UHGV virus genome: UHGV-0085994
DNA: 27,750 bases
Direction: 5' to 3' (one strand)
From: a virus
Part shown: in pieces, positions 2,240 through 27,750 of the stretch
Numbering within the stretch: position 1 is the first letter of the stretch
How the letters are laid out: each line of letters starts with the position of its first letter
Notes under the pieces: model-generated
What the model saw: only the letters and a program-made list of their open reading frames with translations
Databases searched by the model: none
What the model was told of the DNA's origin: nothing
Made by a program: the position numbers and the translations under genes

Positions 2240-2438
2240 ATGGCTTTCATTCAACCAACCATCGACGACGTTAGACATTGCTCTAACGCTTTATCTGTAG
2301 ACCCTGCCGAAACCGACGCTGCCCGCGCCATTGCTGAACACTACTCAAAGATATCCAAGCATCACCCAAGACGACCTGGATGACCTCACTGACACAATCG
2401 AATATCTCATGGCAACTAACCAGTTGGACTCACAATAA
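2240..2438 (+). CDS. coi-like small ORF (C1 inactivator position) upstream of c1; apparent frameshift (47-codon frame 2240-2383, protein-like continuation in +1 frame to TAA at 2436-2438)
   Basis: ATG at 2240 with GAGG Shine-Dalgarno; location between the operator cluster and c1 matches P1 coi; combined length about 66-70 aa versus 69 aa for P1 Coi. Confidence 0.35.
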
Positions 2439-2454
2439 ATGCACTAATAAATCT
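2438..2454 (+). promoter_or_regulatory. C1 operator-like site upstream of c1 (14/17)
   Basis: AATGCACTAATAAATCT about 95 bp upstream of the c1 start. Confidence 0.4.
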
Positions 2455-2548: not shown

Positions 2549-3400
2549 ATGATAAATTATGTCTACGGCGAACAACTGTACCAGGAGTTCGTCAGCTTCA
2601 GGGATCTCTTTCTAAAAAAAGCTGTTGCACGCGCCCAACACGTTGATACAGCCAGCGACGGTCGTCCTGTACGCCCGGTTGTCGTTCTACCGTTCAAAGA
2701 AACTGACAGCATTCAGGCTGAAATTGATAAATGGACTTTAATGGCGCGGGAACTGGAACAGTACCCAGACCTCAATATCCCAAAGACTATTTTATATCCA
2801 GTGCCTAACATCCTTCGCGGTGTGCGCAAGGTTACAACTTATCAGACAGAAGCTGTGAACAGCGTCAATATGACCGCTGGCCGTATTATTCATCTGATTG
2901 ATAAGGACATTCGCATCCAAAAAAGCGCGGGGATCAATGAGCACAGTGCGAAATACATAGAGAACCTGGAAGCAACAAAAGAGCTAATGAGGCAGTACCC
3001 GGAGGATGAAAAATTCCGTATGCGTGTACACGGCTTTAGCGAAACAATGCTGCGCGTCCACTACATCTCCAGTAGCCCTAACTACAATGATGGTAAATCA
3101 GTTAGTTACCATGTACCGCTGTGTGGCGTGTTTATCTGCGATGAAACTCTCCGTGATGGAATCATCATCAACGGTGAATTCGAGAAAGCAAAATTTAGCC
3201 TTTATGACTCTATAGAACCGATCATCTGCGACCGCTGGCCGCAGGCAAAAATATATCGCCTGGCAGATATTGAAAATGTAAAAAAACAAATTGCCATCAC
3301 TCGCGAAGAGAAAAAGGTTAAGTCAGCCGCATCAGTTACGCGCAGCCGTAAAACCAAGAAGGGGCAGCCAGTAAACGACAACCCCGAAAGCGCGCAATAA
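2549..3400 (+). CDS. c1: C1 repressor of lysogeny (P1 immC)
   Basis: 283 aa, the length of P1 C1; N-terminus MINYVYGEQLYQEF; preceded by GGAGGA Shine-Dalgarno and an operator cluster; cognate 17-bp operators occur throughout the window. Confidence 0.9.
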   Translation: MINYVYGEQLYQEFVSFRDLFLKKAVARAQHVDTASDGRPVRPVVVLPFKETDSIQAEIDKWTLMARELEQYPDLNIPKTILYPVPNILRGVRKVTTYQTEAVNSVNMTAGRIIHLIDKDIRIQKSAGINEHSAKYIENLEATKELMRQYPEDEKFRMRVHGFSETMLRVHYISSSPNYNDGKSVSYHVPLCGVFICDETLRDGIIINGEFEKAKFSLYDSIEPIICDRWPQAKIYRLADIENVKKQIAITREEKKVKSAASVTRSRKTKKGQPVNDNPESAQ

Positions 3401-3404
3401 ATTA

Positions 3405-3424
3405 TGCCCGGCATCAACCGGGCA
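3405..3424. terminator. bidirectional stem-loop between convergent c1 and ant
   Basis: TGCCCGG-CATCAA-CCGGGCA hairpin flanked by A/T-rich sequence. Confidence 0.45.
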
Positions 3425-3432
3425 TTCTTCCA

Positions 3433-4548
3433 TTATTCAGCCGCCACCGGTTTTAACAAGCCAGCATCGAGCAGTTTACGCGTCAACCACTGCTGGCCTT
3501 TACCCGTTAATTGAGGCGTCAACCGTATCTGGTAGCCATCTTCATCATCCAGCACCACTTCTTTCACCGTGAAATACCCCGCGTTGATGTACTGCTGGAA
3601 CGGCACATTTTTACGTCCACCGGACGCTATCAGGATGCCGTTCTCCCGTAACCAGGCAAACAGCGCGTTTTGCTTAAGTCCAACAACCTTTGCAAAATTC
3701 CCAATCAGGATCCCTTTAGCTACTGATACCCGGTCGGCAAAATCGACTTTAGGAGCGGCGGCCACCAGCTGCTGATTTAGCTGGTGGGCTTTCTGTTCCA
3801 GAAGCTGCTTTTGTTCAGCCAGTTCGGCAGCCAGGCGCAGAGCTTCTGGAAGCGTCTGGGGGATTGCAACCGGTTGCTGTTCTTTTTGTCGGAAGTAGCT
3901 GTCTTCCAGTTTTTCAAAGAATGCCCATGCCTGATCGGTTTCGATCATTTTAGCGTGGCGGGCTGCGCCGCGTTCCGTCCAGAGGATGAGTGAGCGGGCT
4001 TTAGGAGAGATAGGATTTTGTGAGTTACTTAAAGTCACTCGCAAATTGTTCAAATCATCTCCAATAACTTTATAGAAATGCTTGCCTTCACAAAAACGTT
4101 CAGCATTACGGGAAAAGTTCTTCTTGATGTTATCCGCATCTGTCCCATACCCCTTAGCAAGGATCTTAGTTGTCACTACACGCACTCCCAGCCATTCCAG
4201 AACGGGAATTTCATCAGACTGATTCTGAACAACCACCAGCTCCGATTCCTGAACTGAAGGTGCATGAGTTTTTTCTGATTTAACGTTAGTTGCTTTCATT
4301 CTGTGTGCCTCCTTGCGTGTTTCGGCTGCGACGGTTGCGTAATTCAGATGCCCCTGTTCGAGCAGGTATTCGCGGATATCAGACAACAGAATGCGGTGAA
4401 CAGCGTTCTTGTCCTTTCTCCGGTAAAGTTGTTTGGTGATCATGAAGTAGTTGGCAATAACGCCCGGTATATCCCTGGTACTGATACAGGATGTGTGCTG
4501 TTCAATTGCCTCAATCATTTCTTCACGGGTGACTAATGACGTTCTCAT
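3433..4548 (-). CDS. ant: antirepressor Ant (Bro-N/KilA-N-like N-terminal region, KilAC/ANT-like C-terminal domain)
   Basis: 371 aa; translationally coupled to the upstream 73-aa ORF (4-bp overlap); sits downstream of a c4-like antisense arrangement, as in the P1 immI operon. Confidence 0.65.
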   Translation of the reverse strand: MRTSLVTREEMIEAIEQHTSCISTRDIPGVIANYFMITKQLYRRKDKNAVHRILLSDIREYLLEQGHLNYATVAAETRKEAHRMKATNVKSEKTHAPSVQESELVVVQNQSDEIPVLEWLGVRVVTTKILAKGYGTDADNIKKNFSRNAERFCEGKHFYKVIGDDLNNLRVTLSNSQNPISPKARSLILWTERGAARHAKMIETDQAWAFFEKLEDSYFRQKEQQPVAIPQTLPEALRLAAELAEQKQLLEQKAHQLNQQLVAAAPKVDFADRVSVAKGILIGNFAKVVGLKQNALFAWLRENGILIASGGRKNVPFQQYINAGYFTVKEVVLDDEDGYQIRLTPQLTGKGQQWLTRKLLDAGLLKPVAAE

Positions 4549-4766
4549 AGTCCCTCCTGAGCAGAAGCGTTAACAGGGAGGCACCAGTAACTGAGAGAGT
4601 TGCGCGAATCAGTGGAAAAGCGGGCAGAGAAAATGCAGGGAGCGTCAGGAAGCTGAGAACGGGCCTCATCTTCTGTCGGTGCAATAACGAAGTGATAGTG
4701 ACGTTTCTGGCAGGAATAGAAGCGCCAGATGAATTCAGGATGAGTTGGGGTAGGGACAGTAGCCAT
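4545..4766 (-). CDS. icd: Icd-like small protein (immI operon leader gene)
   Basis: 73-aa ORF overlapping ant start; Shine-Dalgarno AAGGAGG coincides with a sequence complementary to the upstream antisense element. Confidence 0.5.
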   Translation of the reverse strand: MATVPTPTHPEFIWRFYSCQKRHYHFVIAPTEDEARSQLPDAPCIFSARFSTDSRNSLSYWCLPVNASAQEGL

Positions 4767-4799
4767 AATGGCAGCCTCCTTTGACTAAGTTAAGGAGCT

Positions 4800-4890
4800 A
4801 CCGCGTGAGGTCTCAATCTCAATGGCGGTAGCACTGACTGGGTTGAGACTACCGGCGTCAAAGGGAACCGGCCTGCCTTTCGGCAGCCCA
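4800..4890 (-). ncRNA. c4: c4-type antisense RNA (candidate), with loops complementary to the icd leader
   Basis: Minus-strand elements GUCUCAA (4843-4849) and CCUUUGAC (4857-4864) lie in two predicted hairpin loops and are complementary to UUGAGA(C) repeats (4810-4823) and GUCAAAGGAGG (4776-4786, icd RBS); same-sense copies lie upstream at 5000-5006 and 4981-4988, giving the a1/b1 - a'/b' - a2/b2 layout described for P1 c4. Boundaries are approximate. Confidence 0.4.
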
Positions 4891-4950
4891 GCCAGCACTA
4901 CCATTGATTTCGGAGCTAAACGCTACGTATGGCTGTGCGATGGCATGACA

Positions 4951-4975
4951 CAAAAAAAGACGCTTTCGGCGTCTG
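4951..4975 (-). terminator. rho-independent terminator (minus strand) downstream of pacB
   Basis: AGACGC-loop-GCGTCT hairpin followed by U7 on the minus strand. Confidence 0.5.
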
Positions 4976-5105
4976 TGTCGCCTTTGACATTATCCGGGGT
5001 CTCAATCCCGGCACCCGTTTTAATGAGGTGCCTGATAAGCATAAACCGAAAATGCCTCAAGGCGCAAGAGGTCAGGTTCAATGTAACATCGGTAGTTAAA
5101 AAACA

Positions 5106-5122
5106 CAATTTATTAGAGCAAA
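5106..5122 (-). promoter_or_regulatory. C1 operator (Op51-like, upstream of c4/icd/ant), 15/17
   Basis: Plus strand CAATTTATTAGAGCAAA. Confidence 0.6.
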
Positions 5123-5125
5123 TAT

Positions 5126-6610
5126 TCATTCATTAAGCCATGCCAGAGCTTCATCAACCTGCGCTTCGTCTTCGACGCTAAGCACTTCATCCTGGGGAAC
5201 ATAATCCGCCAGCATAGCGAAACAATATGTATCCCAATGGTCTGGTGAGTGCAGGTTGAGTTTTTTCTTCATATCCTCCTTACTCATCACCTTCCATTGA
5301 CCTGCGGAGTTAATCCCTACAGGGATTTTCGACGCTTCCTCAATAGTTTCATTACCCTTATCCAGTCTCATACGACCAGATTTTACGGCCTCTGCGGCTT
5401 GAACGTTGGCATAAGCACGTTTATCAAAGTACAGGCTCTTATCTTCACGGCTATGCATCTTTTTACCCCAGCGTATACGCTGTACGGTAATACCATAATA
5501 CTCGTACATCAGATCCGCCGTTGCTTTACCCAGGCCATCGCCGTCTATCGCTATGGTGATATTTGGGAATCGCTCAGGATTACATTCTGCGAAAATTTTG
5601 GCGGCAAGCTGCGTTTCTGTAACGTCTGTGTATTCCAGCATTCGATAGTTGATTACACGGCGTTTATTTCGCTGGCCGGACACCATCATGATATTGATAA
5701 CGGACTTATCCCGTCCCGTACCACCAGCAACGTCCACACATGCAAGCCAGCCCCATCCTTTGGCAATCTTGACTTTCCGCCGCGTCGCACGTTCAACCTC
5801 ATCACGTCCAAGAAGGAAGCCATCCTGTGATTTAGGGAATAGTCCGCGTACCTTAATCATGTACATAGGGTTATCACGCCCGCCGTACTCCGCCAGCTTC
5901 ATTTTGATAAATGCTGGCGTTACCAGCGGTGATTCCTCACTGTTAAGCGTGATCGCCGTATAAACGCCATCAGGGTTACCAGGACGCTTGGCCAGTTTAT
6001 GGTGAGTATCGTAGAAATAGCCGCTTGGGCGTGTAGGCTGTGACAGTAATAAGATGCGGTTATCCTGTCCGGTAAGAGCACCAGTGATGATACCGAAAGC
6101 TCTATCACTGACACCGGAGGCTTCATCGATAATATACAGAAGATGATCTGCGTGTTCACCGGCGAGAGCTTCTTCACTTCCCAGACGAAAGCCCTTCGGT
6201 ACTACAGTCCATACACCTTTACCAGTAACCTCATATAAAGCGGTTTCTGTCAGAACAAAATAATCAGCAAGCCATGGAAAACGGCTGGTGGCAGTAGCCC
6301 AGTTTATCTTGATGTACTTGAATATACCGGTCATTACCTGCTGAATTTTGTTCGCAACGATAATGGCACGGGCACCGGGATACATGATTATGAACAACAT
6401 GATCATGATAGAAGTCATGTCTGATTTCCCGGTACCGTGGCCAGACGAAACAGATGTCTTGCTACCCTGTTCCTGCACAGACTCAATAATCAGATCCTGC
6501 TGCCAGGTAGGTGTTTTGCCGAACAAAACATCAGCGGCCGCAATCCAGTCATAACGATATAGCGCCACCAGCTCGCGCCAACGTGGATCCGTTACGCAAC
6601 TTCTGGCCAT
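5126..6610 (-). CDS. pacB: terminase large subunit (PacB-like)
   Basis: 494 aa, the length of P1 PacB as I recall it; Walker A-like SGHGTGKS; directly downstream of the small-terminase-like ORF. Confidence 0.8.
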
Positions 6611-7475: not shown

Positions 7476-7492
7476 CAATACATTAGAGCAAT
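7476..7492 (-). promoter_or_regulatory. C1 operator-like site upstream of the pacA-like gene (14/17)
   Basis: Plus strand CAATACATTAGAGCAAT. Confidence 0.4.
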
Positions 7493-16707: not shown

Positions 16708-16724
16708 AGATTTATTAGAGCAAT
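16708..16724 (-). promoter_or_regulatory. C1 operator, 16/17 match
   Basis: Plus strand AGATTTATTAGAGCAAT; lies between the HAD-like gene stop and the small peptide gene. Confidence 0.65.
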
Positions 16725-18799: not shown

Positions 18800-18816
18800 A
18801 TTGCTCTAATAAAAAA
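18800..18816 (+). promoter_or_regulatory. C1 operator-like site (14/17)
   Basis: ATTGCTCTAATAAAAAA. Confidence 0.5.
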
Positions 18817-18848: not shown

Positions 18849-18865
18849 GGAACTATTAGAGCAAT
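18849..18865 (-). promoter_or_regulatory. C1 operator-like site (13/17), inverted relative to 18800-18816
   Basis: Plus strand GGAACTATTAGAGCAAT. Confidence 0.4.
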
Positions 18866-20391: not shown

Positions 20392-21211
20392 GGCACTGTT
20401 GCAAAGTTAGCGATGAGGCAGCCTTTTGTCTTATTCAAAGGCCTTACATTTCAAAAACTCTGCTTACCAGGCGCATTTCGCCCAGGGGATCACCATAATA
20501 AAATGCTGAGGCCTGGCCTTTGCGTAGTGCTCGCATCACCTCAATACCTTTGATGGTGGCGTAAGCCGTCTTCATGGATTTAAATCCCAGCGTGGCGCCG
20601 ATTATCCGTTTCAGTTTGCCATGATCGCATTCAATCACGTTGTTCCGGTACTTAATCTGTCGGTGTTCAACGTCAGACGGGCACCGGCCTTCGCGTTTGA
20701 GCAGAGCAAGCGCGCGACCATAGGCGGGCGCTTTATCCGTGTTGATGAATCGCGGGATCTGCCACTTCTTCACGTTGTTGAGGATTTTACCCAGAAACCG
20801 GTATGCAGCTTTGCTGTTACGACGGGAGGAGAGATAAAAATCGACAGTGCGGCCCCGGCTGTCGACGGCCCGGTACAGATACGCCCAGCGGCCATTGACC
20901 TTCACGTAGGTTTCATCCATGTGCCACGGGCAAAGATCGGAAGGGTTACGCCAGTACCAGCGCAGCCGTTTTTCCATTTCAGGCGCATAACGCTGAACCC
21001 AGCGGTAAATCGTGGAGTGATCGACATTCACTCCGCGTTCAGCCAGCATCTCCTGCAGCTCACGGTAACTGATGCCGTATTTGCAGTACCAGCGTACGGC
21101 CCACAGAATGATGTCACGCTGAAAATGCCGGCCTTTGAATGGGTTCATGTGCAGCTCCATCAGCAAAAGGGGATGATAAGTTTATCACCACCGACTATTT
21201 GCAACAGTGCC
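20392..21211 (-). mobile_element. IS26 (IS6 family), complete 820-bp element
   Basis: 14-bp terminal inverted repeats GGCACTGTTGCAAA at 20392-20405 and 21198-21211; encodes Tnp26; no 8-bp target-site duplication in the flanks. Confidence 0.95.
20444..21148 (-). CDS. tnpA: IS26 transposase Tnp26
   Basis: 234 aa from MNPFKGRHFQRDIILWAVRWY...; matches IS26 transposase as recalled. Confidence 0.95.
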   Translation of the reverse strand: MNPFKGRHFQRDIILWAVRWYCKYGISYRELQEMLAERGVNVDHSTIYRWVQRYAPEMEKRLRWYWRNPSDLCPWHMDETYVKVNGRWAYLYRAVDSRGRTVDFYLSSRRNSKAAYRFLGKILNNVKKWQIPRFINTDKAPAYGRALALLKREGRCPSDVEHRQIKYRNNVIECDHGKLKRIIGATLGFKSMKTAYATIKGIEVMRALRKGQASAFYYGDPLGEMRLVSRVFEM

Positions 21212-25951: not shown

Positions 25952-26559
<608 letters not shown>

Positions 26560-26671
26560 TAGTCATTTGTTCATTGAGTAGGAATATTGTTGTCTGGGGG
26601 GTAATCAGTGTAGGTGGAATGAGGGATATGATATGGTTATCACATAATCAGGTTGTTTTGAGTAAAACAAT

Positions 26672-26698
26672 AAAACGCCCTTTAATGGGCGTTTTTTT
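26672..26698. terminator. rho-independent terminator (hairpin AACGCCC-TTTAAT-GGGCGTT plus T7), bidirectional context
   Basis: Directly downstream of the 270-aa minus-strand ORF. Confidence 0.6.
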
Positions 26699-26727
26699 AA
26701 AACTTAAATTGACTATCCTTTCAAATA

Positions 26728-27540
26728 CTATTTTAATTCTATGTAATTTTTAAATTCTCCCTCATATTTATACATGATGCTATCAAATCCTTCCATTACA
26801 TCAACGAATTGTTGTGAACATTCCGGCTTCCAAGGCGTACACTTACGAACCATATCCATTTTTTTCTTATCCTTCGTTGTATCGACTAAGGATAGGTACC
26901 CTATAAAATTCATCATCTGAACAGGATCTTGATTTGTGAATATATATTTGACGTTTTGCTTAGTAGGCGAAAAAGAATCAAAAGCAGGGAACATATATTC
27001 ACCAGAAAAAGAGAGTGCAGCATCAATGACGTCTGTTGCAGGAGTGCAGTTGCTCAGAATTGGCACTAAGCTAAAATTAGCACCTGAGCACACTGCATAT
27101 ATATCATCCCCTTTTTTTAGTTTTAACAGAGAGTCTTGCTTTGAATCCAATATTTTCAATTTGATATAATTTAGTGGCGTTGCATTTTCCCCTGGAGTAA
27201 ATAACTCTACAATTGGTTTATTATTCACCATTCTTATGGATTTTATTTCACCATACACAATTGGAATTGTGTTCCATTTTTCCTGAGCAGCAAATTCATT
27301 ATCTTTAAAATCATTAACCAACTCAGATGGCAAATGATAACCAAATTGATTGTTCATTGCTTTCGAAGCAAATCCAGACAAATAGAATGCCCTTACTAAA
27401 TCATAATCTTTCTTTGAGGTAGAAAGCCAATCTGGCAATTTATTATCAGCTATCGCGCTTCCAGCAAAAATAGCACAACAAAATGTTATTACATTAAATA
27501 ATTTCATTTTCCATTCACTCATTAATCGGTTTAAACTCAC
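26728..27540 (-). CDS. hypothetical secreted/periplasmic protein (N-terminal signal peptide), AT-rich cargo gene
   Basis: 270 aa; hydrophobic signal MKLFNVITFCCAIFAGSAIA; region strongly AT-rich compared with the phage backbone. Confidence 0.55.
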   Translation of the reverse strand: MSLNRLMSEWKMKLFNVITFCCAIFAGSAIADNKLPDWLSTSKKDYDLVRAFYLSGFASKAMNNQFGYHLPSELVNDFKDNEFAAQEKWNTIPIVYGEIKSIRMVNNKPIVELFTPGENATPLNYIKLKILDSKQDSLLKLKKGDDIYAVCSGANFSLVPILSNCTPATDVIDAALSFSGEYMFPAFDSFSPTKQNVKYIFTNQDPVQMMNFIGYLSLVDTTKDKKKMDMVRKCTPWKPECSQQFVDVMEGFDSIMYKYEGEFKNYIELK

Positions 27541-27709
27541 TAATTAATTCACCAAGACTATTTGGGTATGCTTTATAAATAACATACTCCGAAGAGCCAT
27601 CTGAATATTGGTAAGCCCCATAACAGATCAGTTTATTTATTCCTTTCTGAATAGTTTTTTGATTATAAGAATCAACCACTGTTATTCCATATGACGGTAA
27701 TGACTCCAA
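27515..27709 (-). CDS. hypothetical ORF fragment, 5' end disrupted by IS1 (only in-frame start is a TTG inside the IS1 terminus)
   Basis: 64-aa ORF with no internal Met; its 3' end overlaps the start of the 270-aa gene. Confidence 0.3.
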   Translation of the reverse strand: MESLPSYGITVVDSYNQKTIQKGINKLICYGAYQYSDGSSEYVIYKAYPNSLGELISEFKPINE

Positions 27710-27750
27710 CTTATTGATAGTGTTTTATGTTCAGATAATGCCCGATGACT
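27696..27750 (-). mobile_element. IS1 right-terminal fragment (55 bp), inverted relative to the copy at 1-53
   Basis: GGTAATGACTCCAACTTATTGATAGTGTTTTATGTTCAGATAATGCCCGATGACT, recognised as the IS1 terminus. Confidence 0.8.

Follow-up and report, generated by a model that had tools for sequence, protein, structure and literature searches.

The c4 antisense-RNA switch of phage P1, which silences an antirepressor gene, is a well-understood kind of element and is common in P1-like plasmids. The P1 GenBank record marks a2 and b2 as C4 RNA target sites through which icd/ant translation is repressed and lists a1 and b1 as "putative" sites, and full repression of ant in P1 needs the C4 antisense RNA (PMC8198154). 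Two c4-icd regions have been reported for D6-like prophages (PMC6799933). In Gifsy-1 of Salmonella, the IsrK/STnc1160/orf45-anrP locus has a leader complementary to a downstream c4-like segment, and the short IsrK RNA activates antirepressor translation in trans through base pairing to the segment from which an RNA of ~80 nucleotides (nt) is processed; the same work compares IsrK with P4 SeqA as a structural homologue and leaves the P1 c4/a2/b2 logic undescribed (PMC4825925). Finally, in pTZ20_1P and RCS47 an insertion of "two short hypothetical orfs and ant" was noted between pacB and c1 (Venturini 2019, PMC6906374). Here we analyzed a stretch of 27,750 nt of the virus genome UHGV-0085994 (the window) and describe a c4-type module on its minus strand between pacB and c1, the same insertion as that in pTZ20_1P and RCS47.

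Judged by its sequence, the module is a complete extra copy of the P1 switch (Table 1). It has its own specificity within a known system curated in Rfam, and its insertion site is known but under-annotated. With the immI region of P1 and P7 it shares the order of the parts, an operator over the upstream promoter, a three-helix c4 with b' in the loop of hairpin 2 and a' in a junction, a b2 box lying on the icd Shine-Dalgarno sequence, an ATGA overlap of icd and ant, and an internal ant2 start. It differs in lying at pacB-c1 instead of sim-kilA, in having an IsrK-type leader where P1 and P7 have the c4-a1b1 type, and in a middle domain of Ant that P1 Ant1 lacks.

Table 1. Coordinates of the pacB-c1 module and of C1 operators in the window
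Feature	Position	Strand	Details
C1 operator	5122-5106	minus	TTTGCTCTAATAAATTG; homologous to P1 Oc4/Op51
Putative upstream P51a/P2c4-like promoter	-35 5108-5103; -10 5085-5080	minus	TTGTGT, 17-nt spacer, TACATT; homology
Putative second P51b/PisrK-like promoter	-35 5067-5062; -10 5043-5038	minus	TTGCGC, 18-nt spacer, TATGCT; homology
IsrK-type leader RNA	5031-4953	minus	Rfam RF01394, 60.2 bits (cutoff 50)
a1	5005-4999	minus	UUGAGAC; loop of leader hairpin 2
b1	4988-4981	minus	GUCAAAGG; leader
Leader intrinsic terminator	stem 4974-4958; U-run 4957-4951	minus	terminator scan
c4 antisense RNA gene	4908-4821	minus	Rfam RF01695, 75.4 bits (cutoff 45)
b'	4864-4857	minus	CCUUUGAC; loop of c4 hairpin 2
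a'	4849-4843	minus	GUCUCAA; 8-nt single-stranded c4 junction, hairpin 2 to closing stem
a2	4816-4810	minus	UUGAGAC; icd leader; longer UUGAGAUUGAGAC at 4822-4810
b2	4785-4778	minus	GUCAAAGG; extended GUCAAAGGAGG at 4785-4775; overlaps icd Shine-Dalgarno GGAGG at 4779-4775
icd homologue, 73 aa	4545-4766	minus	80% identical to P1 Icd; NCBIfam phage_ICD_like, 49.8 bits
ant antirepressor, 371 aa	3433-4548	minus	Pfam ANT/KilAC 1.8e-31, ORF6N 3.9e-18
8-bp GC-rich hairpin	3404-3425		ATGCCCGG-TTGATG-CCGGGCAT; between convergent ant and c1 stops; read from sequence
immC operators Oc1e, Oc1d, Oc1c, Oc1a	1902-1918, 1985-2001, 2277-2293, 2438-2454		identical to annotated P1 operators
Olpa operator	7476-7492		identical to annotated P1 operator
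Other operator-matrix matches	341-357, 16708-16724, 18800-18816, 18849-18865

In the Rfam scan of the window, c4 matched its model over the full length (model positions 1-87). Its fold, with a minimum free energy (MFE) of -46.7 kcal/mol and a z of -5.6, consisted of a closing stem of 16 bp and two hairpins, the first capped by GAAA and the second with b' in its loop. The long closing stem and the two hairpins carry compensatory changes, and the two exposed boxes are complementary to upstream and downstream sites on the same strand, as in RF01695. Alignment to the annotated 77-nt c4 of P1 predicts a slightly longer mature RNA of 79 nt at 4902-4824. The region contains the conserved AU/GG and a 3' GCCA; the tRNA-like RNase P substrate structure that the sequence-only reading had raised for it is suggested only by the long stem and the GCCA, and ARAGORN found no tRNA-like gene.

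The leader folds into two hairpins followed by b1 and an intrinsic terminator, matching the RF01394 architecture, in which a pair of 5' hairpins precedes a single-stranded stretch and a Rho-independent terminator. With c4-a1b1 (RF03163), the model for P1-type leaders, the same leader scored 22.3 bits, under the cutoff of 46.7, while the leaders of P1, P7, canonical RCS47 and D6_B scored 51-56 bits. By these scores, the module has the a1/b1 leader in a diverged, IsrK-type form. The isrK and the subthreshold c4-a1b1 matches coincide within 4953-5044, and the P1, P7 and D6_B leaders match c4-a1b1 only, so that isrK appears to represent the a1/b1 leader in one lineage of c4, though it stands outside the Rfam clan CL00128 that contains C4.

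Direct reading of the minus strand recovered all six of the sense and antisense elements that the sequence-only reading had listed. Its coordinates were correct for b1, b' and a' and off by one for a1, a2 and b2. It had placed the complementary boxes in two hairpin loops, which holds for b'; according to both the fold and Rfam, a' lies in a single-stranded junction instead. In the longer element proposed as a2, UUGAGAUUGAGAC, the second unit does covary with a', but the first UUGAGA falls within a constant AUUGAGA segment that is also present in relatives having another a box. The overlap of b2 with the Shine-Dalgarno sequence of icd, whose AUG is at 4766, was as described. Counted over both strands of the 27.75-kb window, the GTCAAAGG 8-mer had three copies against 0.74 expected, all of them inside the module and in the predicted orientations. 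The TTGAGAC 7-mer also had three copies, all in the module, a count that is unremarkable by itself (3.4 expected). Taken together, the way the copies cluster, their orientation and, most of all, their covariation in relatives place the pattern far beyond chance.

To that covariation a pattern scan of viral contigs contributed 120 usable modules of the window-type lineage, with 9 a-box and 6 b-box types. Not one of the 120 had a mismatch in a2:a' or b2:b', all positions being Watson-Crick or G-U pairs, and a1 and b1 paired as well except for a1 in two recombinants. In the window module, all 30 box pairs are Watson-Crick and form four perfect duplexes. For 15 representative modules we built an alignment in which the c4 internal helices, a2:a' and b2:b' had standard pairs in 99.8% of cells and 24 of 42 pairs changed on both sides. 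The 27 internal c4 pairs were 99.6-100% paired, with double-sided changes at 15; a2:a' and b2:b' were 100% paired, with such changes at five of seven and four of eight pairs, respectively; and for the leader boxes, a1:a' was paired in 97% of cells (5/7 changing on both sides) and b1:b' in 100% (4/8). None of 500 shuffles reached the score observed for the set of c4 and a2/b2, and slid registers paired at 28-50%. Comparative evidence for an RNA-RNA interaction hardly comes stronger than this. The Rfam C4 match, the fold and the covariation of the four intermolecular helices together bear out the a1/b1 - c4 - a2/b2 logic first read from the letters.

The two exceptions, the natural recombinants L100:19-321 and L088:5042-5344, have one mismatch and one G-U pair between a1 and a' but perfect a2, b1 and b2. 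This suggests that a crossover took place between leader and c4 and that the constraint on a1 is looser. In the Stx-phage-type L084, upstream of 6125, a CACCAAT 7-nt unit was repeated ~10 times between a2 and b2, an expansion that multiplies partial copies of the b2 box.

The C1 operator that had been placed over the promoter agreed with the consensus of the nine annotated P1 operators at 15 of 17 positions. On a position weight matrix built from the same nine, it scored 20.1 bits; the real P1 operators score 8.6-23.1, eight of them at least 14.8. The flanking sequence aligns with P1 Oc4-P2c4, and the -35 of the upstream promoter, the positional homologue of P1 P2c4 (annotated as TTGTAT-17-TATCTT), overlaps the operator. 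The second promoter has no operator, aligns column by column with TTGACT-17-TATATT of Stx phages and TTGCGC-17-TATATT of D6, both near-consensus, and probably starts transcription near 5031.

Downstream of the RNA genes, the stop of icd and the start of ant share an ATGA, an overlap also present in P1. By homology, icd would inhibit cell division and, as the upstream cistron, be required for the expression of ant. Ant is 54% identical to P1 Ant1 overall and consists of an Ant1-like N terminus, an ORF6N middle (residues ~100-227), a domain absent from P1 Ant1, and a KilAC C terminus, the last ~140 residues being nearly identical (~90%). An internal ant2-type Shine-Dalgarno sequence and AUG occur at Met84 (4299-4297), in a context, AAGGAGGCACACAGAATG, conserved with P1 ant2. 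The module has in common with canonical immI, accordingly, both a C1 operator over the upstream promoter and coupled icd and ant1/ant2 homologues. The hairpin between ant and c1 is conserved in JL22 and 673R5 and is likely to be a bidirectional terminator.

The stop codons of pacB and c1 are 24 bp apart in P1, and the module replaces this 24-bp spacer and adds ~1.7 kb. In the window, the operator and the module come directly after pacB (6610-5126); beyond the end of ant at 3433 lies the hairpin, and c1 converges at 3400; a canonical immI would lie between sim or upf50.5 and kilA-repL. The arrangement is the same in phage RCS47, JL22 and 673R5. RCS47 is 99.8% identical to the window over 4540-5135, and pB2-L (LC257586.1) is 100% identical over 3250-5300 but not collinear with the window. 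Among the 803 plasmid records matching the region, 281 have the module at the pacB-c1 site. Most database records label it only as hypothetical open reading frames (ORFs) plus ant, and the c4 RNA, leader RNA, operator and target boxes are unannotated in the RCS47, JL22 and pB2-L records and in the report on pTZ20_1P and RCS47 (PMC6906374).

Sequence similarity indicates that the module is a mosaic of a P1-type operator and upstream promoter, a leader, c4 and icd of D6/Stx-phage type, and a chimeric ant. A region at 75 kb in D6 has 86% identity over leader, c4 and icd (~70% in Stx phages); its leader is likewise IsrK-type, and its a box is that of the window. The D6 region lacks the P1 C1 operator/P51a segment upstream, has a different b box (GCAAAAGG, with b' CCUUUUGC) and a Rha/Roi-type antirepressor, and is not at pacB-c1; D6 also carries a second, P1-lineage module. 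Gifsy-1 shares the Rfam leader family, a c4-like RNA of ~80 nt downstream and a regulated antirepressor, and its leader, like that of the module, is complementary to the c4-like segment (PMC4825925). The module differs from it by icd between c4 and the antirepressor, by the extra promoter under a P1 C1 operator, and by its plasmid prophage host. A further likeness, by description, is the P4 CI RNA with seqA and seqC, a processed antisense RNA flanked by complementary sites on both sides; CI, however, causes transcription termination, and P4 has neither icd nor ant.

The sequence-only reading had considered it worth determining whether the immunity specificity was that of P1 or of P7. It is neither. 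The P1 boxes are UUGACAG (a) and GUUAGUG (b), and those of P7 are UUAGCAG and GAUUGUG; the window boxes, UUGAGAC and GUCAAAGG, differ in register from P1 at two positions each and from P7 at three (a) and four (b). Nearest-neighbour energies were -16 to -17 kcal/mol for cognate two-box duplexes (-17.4 for the window pair), against -4.8 for the window c4 on P1 targets and +0.9 on P7 targets. For comparison, the P1/P7 cross pairs, which are heteroimmune by experiment, had -6.1 and -4.8 kcal/mol. A direct MAFFT alignment to P1 immI recovered the operator but was otherwise uninformative, and we used Rfam-anchored extraction instead.

Since the window ends just past simC, comparisons with canonical immI were made in RCS47, pB2-L, JL22, 673R5 and D6. 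RCS47 and pB2-L, which have the module at 99.8-100% identity, also carry a separate canonical immI of P7 type, and JL22, 673R5 and D6 have two modules each that differ in both boxes. Given the box differences and the P7-type canonical immI of the nearest replicons, the two switches of one element should be orthogonal, that is, independent and free of cross-talk. All four combinations of the a boxes UUGAGAC and UUGGAAC with the b boxes GUCAAAGG and GCAAAAGG occur on one near-identical backbone. One could go further and see in these elements two orthogonal RNA locks on two antirepressors, with an independently swapped two-box code and a C1-controlled leader sponge, an idea that we advance only tentatively and regard as doubtful for now. 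Among the canonical copies, that of JL22 (L134) is a hybrid whose a box (UUGACAG) is that of P1 and whose b box (GAUUGUG) is that of P7. In 673R5 (L135), the a box is that of P7, the b box is a new one, ACGAAUG (b' CAUUCGU), and the b1 copy, ACGGGAAUG, looks imperfect.

All sequence requirements of the P1 system are present in the module, and we therefore favour, with a probability of roughly 85%, a core mechanism like that of P1, in which a promoter is repressed by C1 and an excised c4 acting on a2/b2 blocks icd and hence ant. The minus strand would be transcribed from two promoters, of which the upstream one, being overlapped by the C1 operator, would be shut in lysogens. The transcript would first give the a1/b1 leader, ending at the terminator, and with read-through c4 and then the icd-ant message. 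From this, c4 would be excised as an RNA of ~79 nt; the Schuster laboratory reportedly found that c4 of P1 is cut from the operon transcript, with RNase P making the 5' end at AU/GG. Its b' and a' would then pair with b2 and a2 and cover the icd Shine-Dalgarno sequence. With icd untranslated, the translationally coupled ant would not be made and C1 would stay active. In P1, according to the same laboratory, the block of icd translation is said to cause Rho-dependent polarity, such that ant transcription is lost as well.

The leader could also bind these c4 boxes, either in cis inside the precursor or in trans once terminated as a short RNA. When the 281-nt precursor is folded, a1/b1 pair in cis with a'/b' in the MFE structure, and this fold, along with the trans-activation by IsrK in Gifsy-1, makes it most likely that the leader is an anti-antisense decoy relieving the block when the C1-controlled promoter fires; an effect on leader termination as in P4 CI is a secondary possibility. 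In the tentative sponge reading, the operator-bound promoter would fire on loss of C1, c4 would be titrated by the leader, and the Ant then produced would inactivate still more C1.

The anatomy, RNA families, structure, pairing covariation, operator quality, intact coupled ORFs and genomic position of the module were observed directly; we infer from them that its RNA is processed, that the promoters are used, that translation is repressed, that a1/b1 act as a decoy and that Ant binds C1. Several points weigh against the mechanism favoured here. Processing, promoter activity, repression and the Ant-C1 interaction are all predicted from homology. A strict consensus promoter scan found none, so both promoters were placed by positional homology, and both are weak by consensus. 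Without substantial read-through, c4 synthesis would be held down by the terminator that lies between b1 and c4. The ORF6N middle of Ant could mean a target other than that of P1 Ant. The leader, moreover, is of a type for which the only experiments, in Gifsy-1, attributed control to a translated orf45 and to mRNA that adopts alternative structures, with no part for a free processed antisense RNA, and Hfq binding and antirepressor trans-activation of isrK are known only from there (PMC4825925).

The last point leads to the alternatives. Under control of the Gifsy-1 type, the c4-like segment would be no free antisense RNA but part of a translated orf45/"Ash"-like leader ORF (4904-4785) in an mRNA switching between inactive and active folds, and the short IsrK-like RNA would be the sole trans-acting regulator, an activator. 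A 39-codon ORF indeed spans c4 from the AUG of the conserved AU/GG, and its translation matches Pfam PF10554 Phage_ASH with 28.3 bits (cutoff 26). It is open for at least 37 codons in 120 of 120 modules, running in frame into the downstream gene in ~50, and PGAP calls of "ash family protein" on related plasmids fall in this region; in P1 and P7 it stops after 14 codons. The isrK leader itself and the a1/b1:a'/b' pairing in the precursor MFE fold, which resembles "structure A" of IsrK (PMC4825925), fit this idea too. Either the Phage_ASH family has been built from what is an RNA gene, or the module has a leader ORF of the orf45 kind. Under either reading, the stem covariation shows that the c4 RNA structure is under selection. 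Against Gifsy-1-type control stand the compensatory changes in 15 of 27 c4 stem pairs and the perfect covariation of a2/b2 with a'/b', which befits an antisense target at the icd Shine-Dalgarno sequence; the AUG is buried in the base of the 16-bp stem and lacks a Shine-Dalgarno sequence; and the AUG equivalent to this start is reportedly split by RNase P cleavage in P1. Since Gifsy-1, too, has a processed STnc1160 of ~80 nt (PMC4825925), the Gifsy-1-type and antisense models can coexist, and we consider Gifsy-1-type control, taken as a replacement for the P1-like mechanism, improbable. Slightly less improbable, though still unlikely, is that c4 acts as P4 CI does, enforcing termination at 4974-4951 by binding nascent a1/b1, so that the switch would mainly be transcriptional autoregulation. 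Here 6 nt separate b1 from the terminator stem downstream of it, a1/b1 covary with c4, C4 is in clan CL00128, and the idea has been raised for STnc1160 (Hershko-Shalev 2016, PMC4825925). Yet b2 overlaps the Shine-Dalgarno sequence and a2/b2 never mismatch, and because L100 and L088 lost a1 complementarity but kept a2, b1 and b2, the a2/b2 pairing looks the more tightly constrained. In Gifsy-1, furthermore, constitutive STnc1160 worsened the IsrK growth arrest instead of relieving it as this model had predicted (PMC4825925).

We give least credence to the two remaining explanations. The module could be taken for canonical P1/P7 immI (sim/upf50.5-c4-icd-ant1/2-kilA-repL) of P1 or P7 specificity, for the gene order operator-leader-c4-icd-ant and the C1 operator are the same and Icd and Ant are homologous to those of P1. 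The immI-type architecture stands, but the identification with canonical immI is refuted by the pacB-c1 position and by sequence: there is no kilA-repL downstream, the leader is of isrK type, the boxes differ, and RCS47 and pB2-L have their P7-type immI elsewhere. What we have is a second module, and it is hard to see any room for the canonical assignment. An inactive recombination remnant, currently without function, would agree with the weak promoters and with records consisting mostly of hypothetical ORFs and ant, but would hardly have kept all parts intact, with 30 of 30 box pairs Watson-Crick and the coupled ORFs open, or have been retained at this site in 281 plasmid records with covarying specificity variants, and we rate it as very improbable.

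The biology proposed for the module is textbook P1 immunity, and in that respect the find is unsurprising. Its interest lies in the about one third of region-matching P1-like plasmid records, among them many plasmids with resistance genes, that carry an unannotated switch, which genome records call hypothetical ORFs or "ash family protein". A separately RNA-controlled second antirepressor may affect induction and superinfection exclusion among co-circulating P1-like plasmids. With their perfect three-way covariation, the ~9 types of a box and 6 types of b box form an exceptionally clean set of natural variants, usable for the design of orthogonal antisense regulators or for predicting which P1-like elements are heteroimmune. 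The IsrK-type leader links IsrK of Gifsy-1 to a1/b1 of P1 and suggests a testable a1/b1 function. If the tentative two-lock sponge reading were true, it would provide an RNA-level positive-feedback trigger and a function for the "putative" a1/b1 sites of P1.

Three ORFs overlapping the RNA elements were considered as genes and rejected: a 104-amino acid ORF (4822-5136, plus strand), a 56-amino acid ORF (4929-5099, plus strand) and a 68-amino acid ORF (4923-5129, minus strand). No family matched any of them significantly, and they are unlikely to be genes, although the 56-amino acid ORF is labelled "probable transcriptional regulator" in pB2-L and, among the overlapping ORFs, JL22 gp120 is annotated "hypothetical protein".

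The replicon of the window is rearranged by insertion sequence (IS) elements, and no plasmid record was collinear with the window or spanned its IS26/IS1-flanked right end. The right end (25952-27750) contains pmgC and simC, 98-99% identical to P1 and belonging to the flank of canonical immI. Just past simC it breaks at 27696-27750, which we take to be an IS1 terminal repeat. An ORF of 240 amino acids at 20444-21166 sits where relatives annotate the IS26 transposase. Apart from the module operator, the C1-operator matrix had nine further matches in the window, scoring 16.7-23.1 bits (Table 1).

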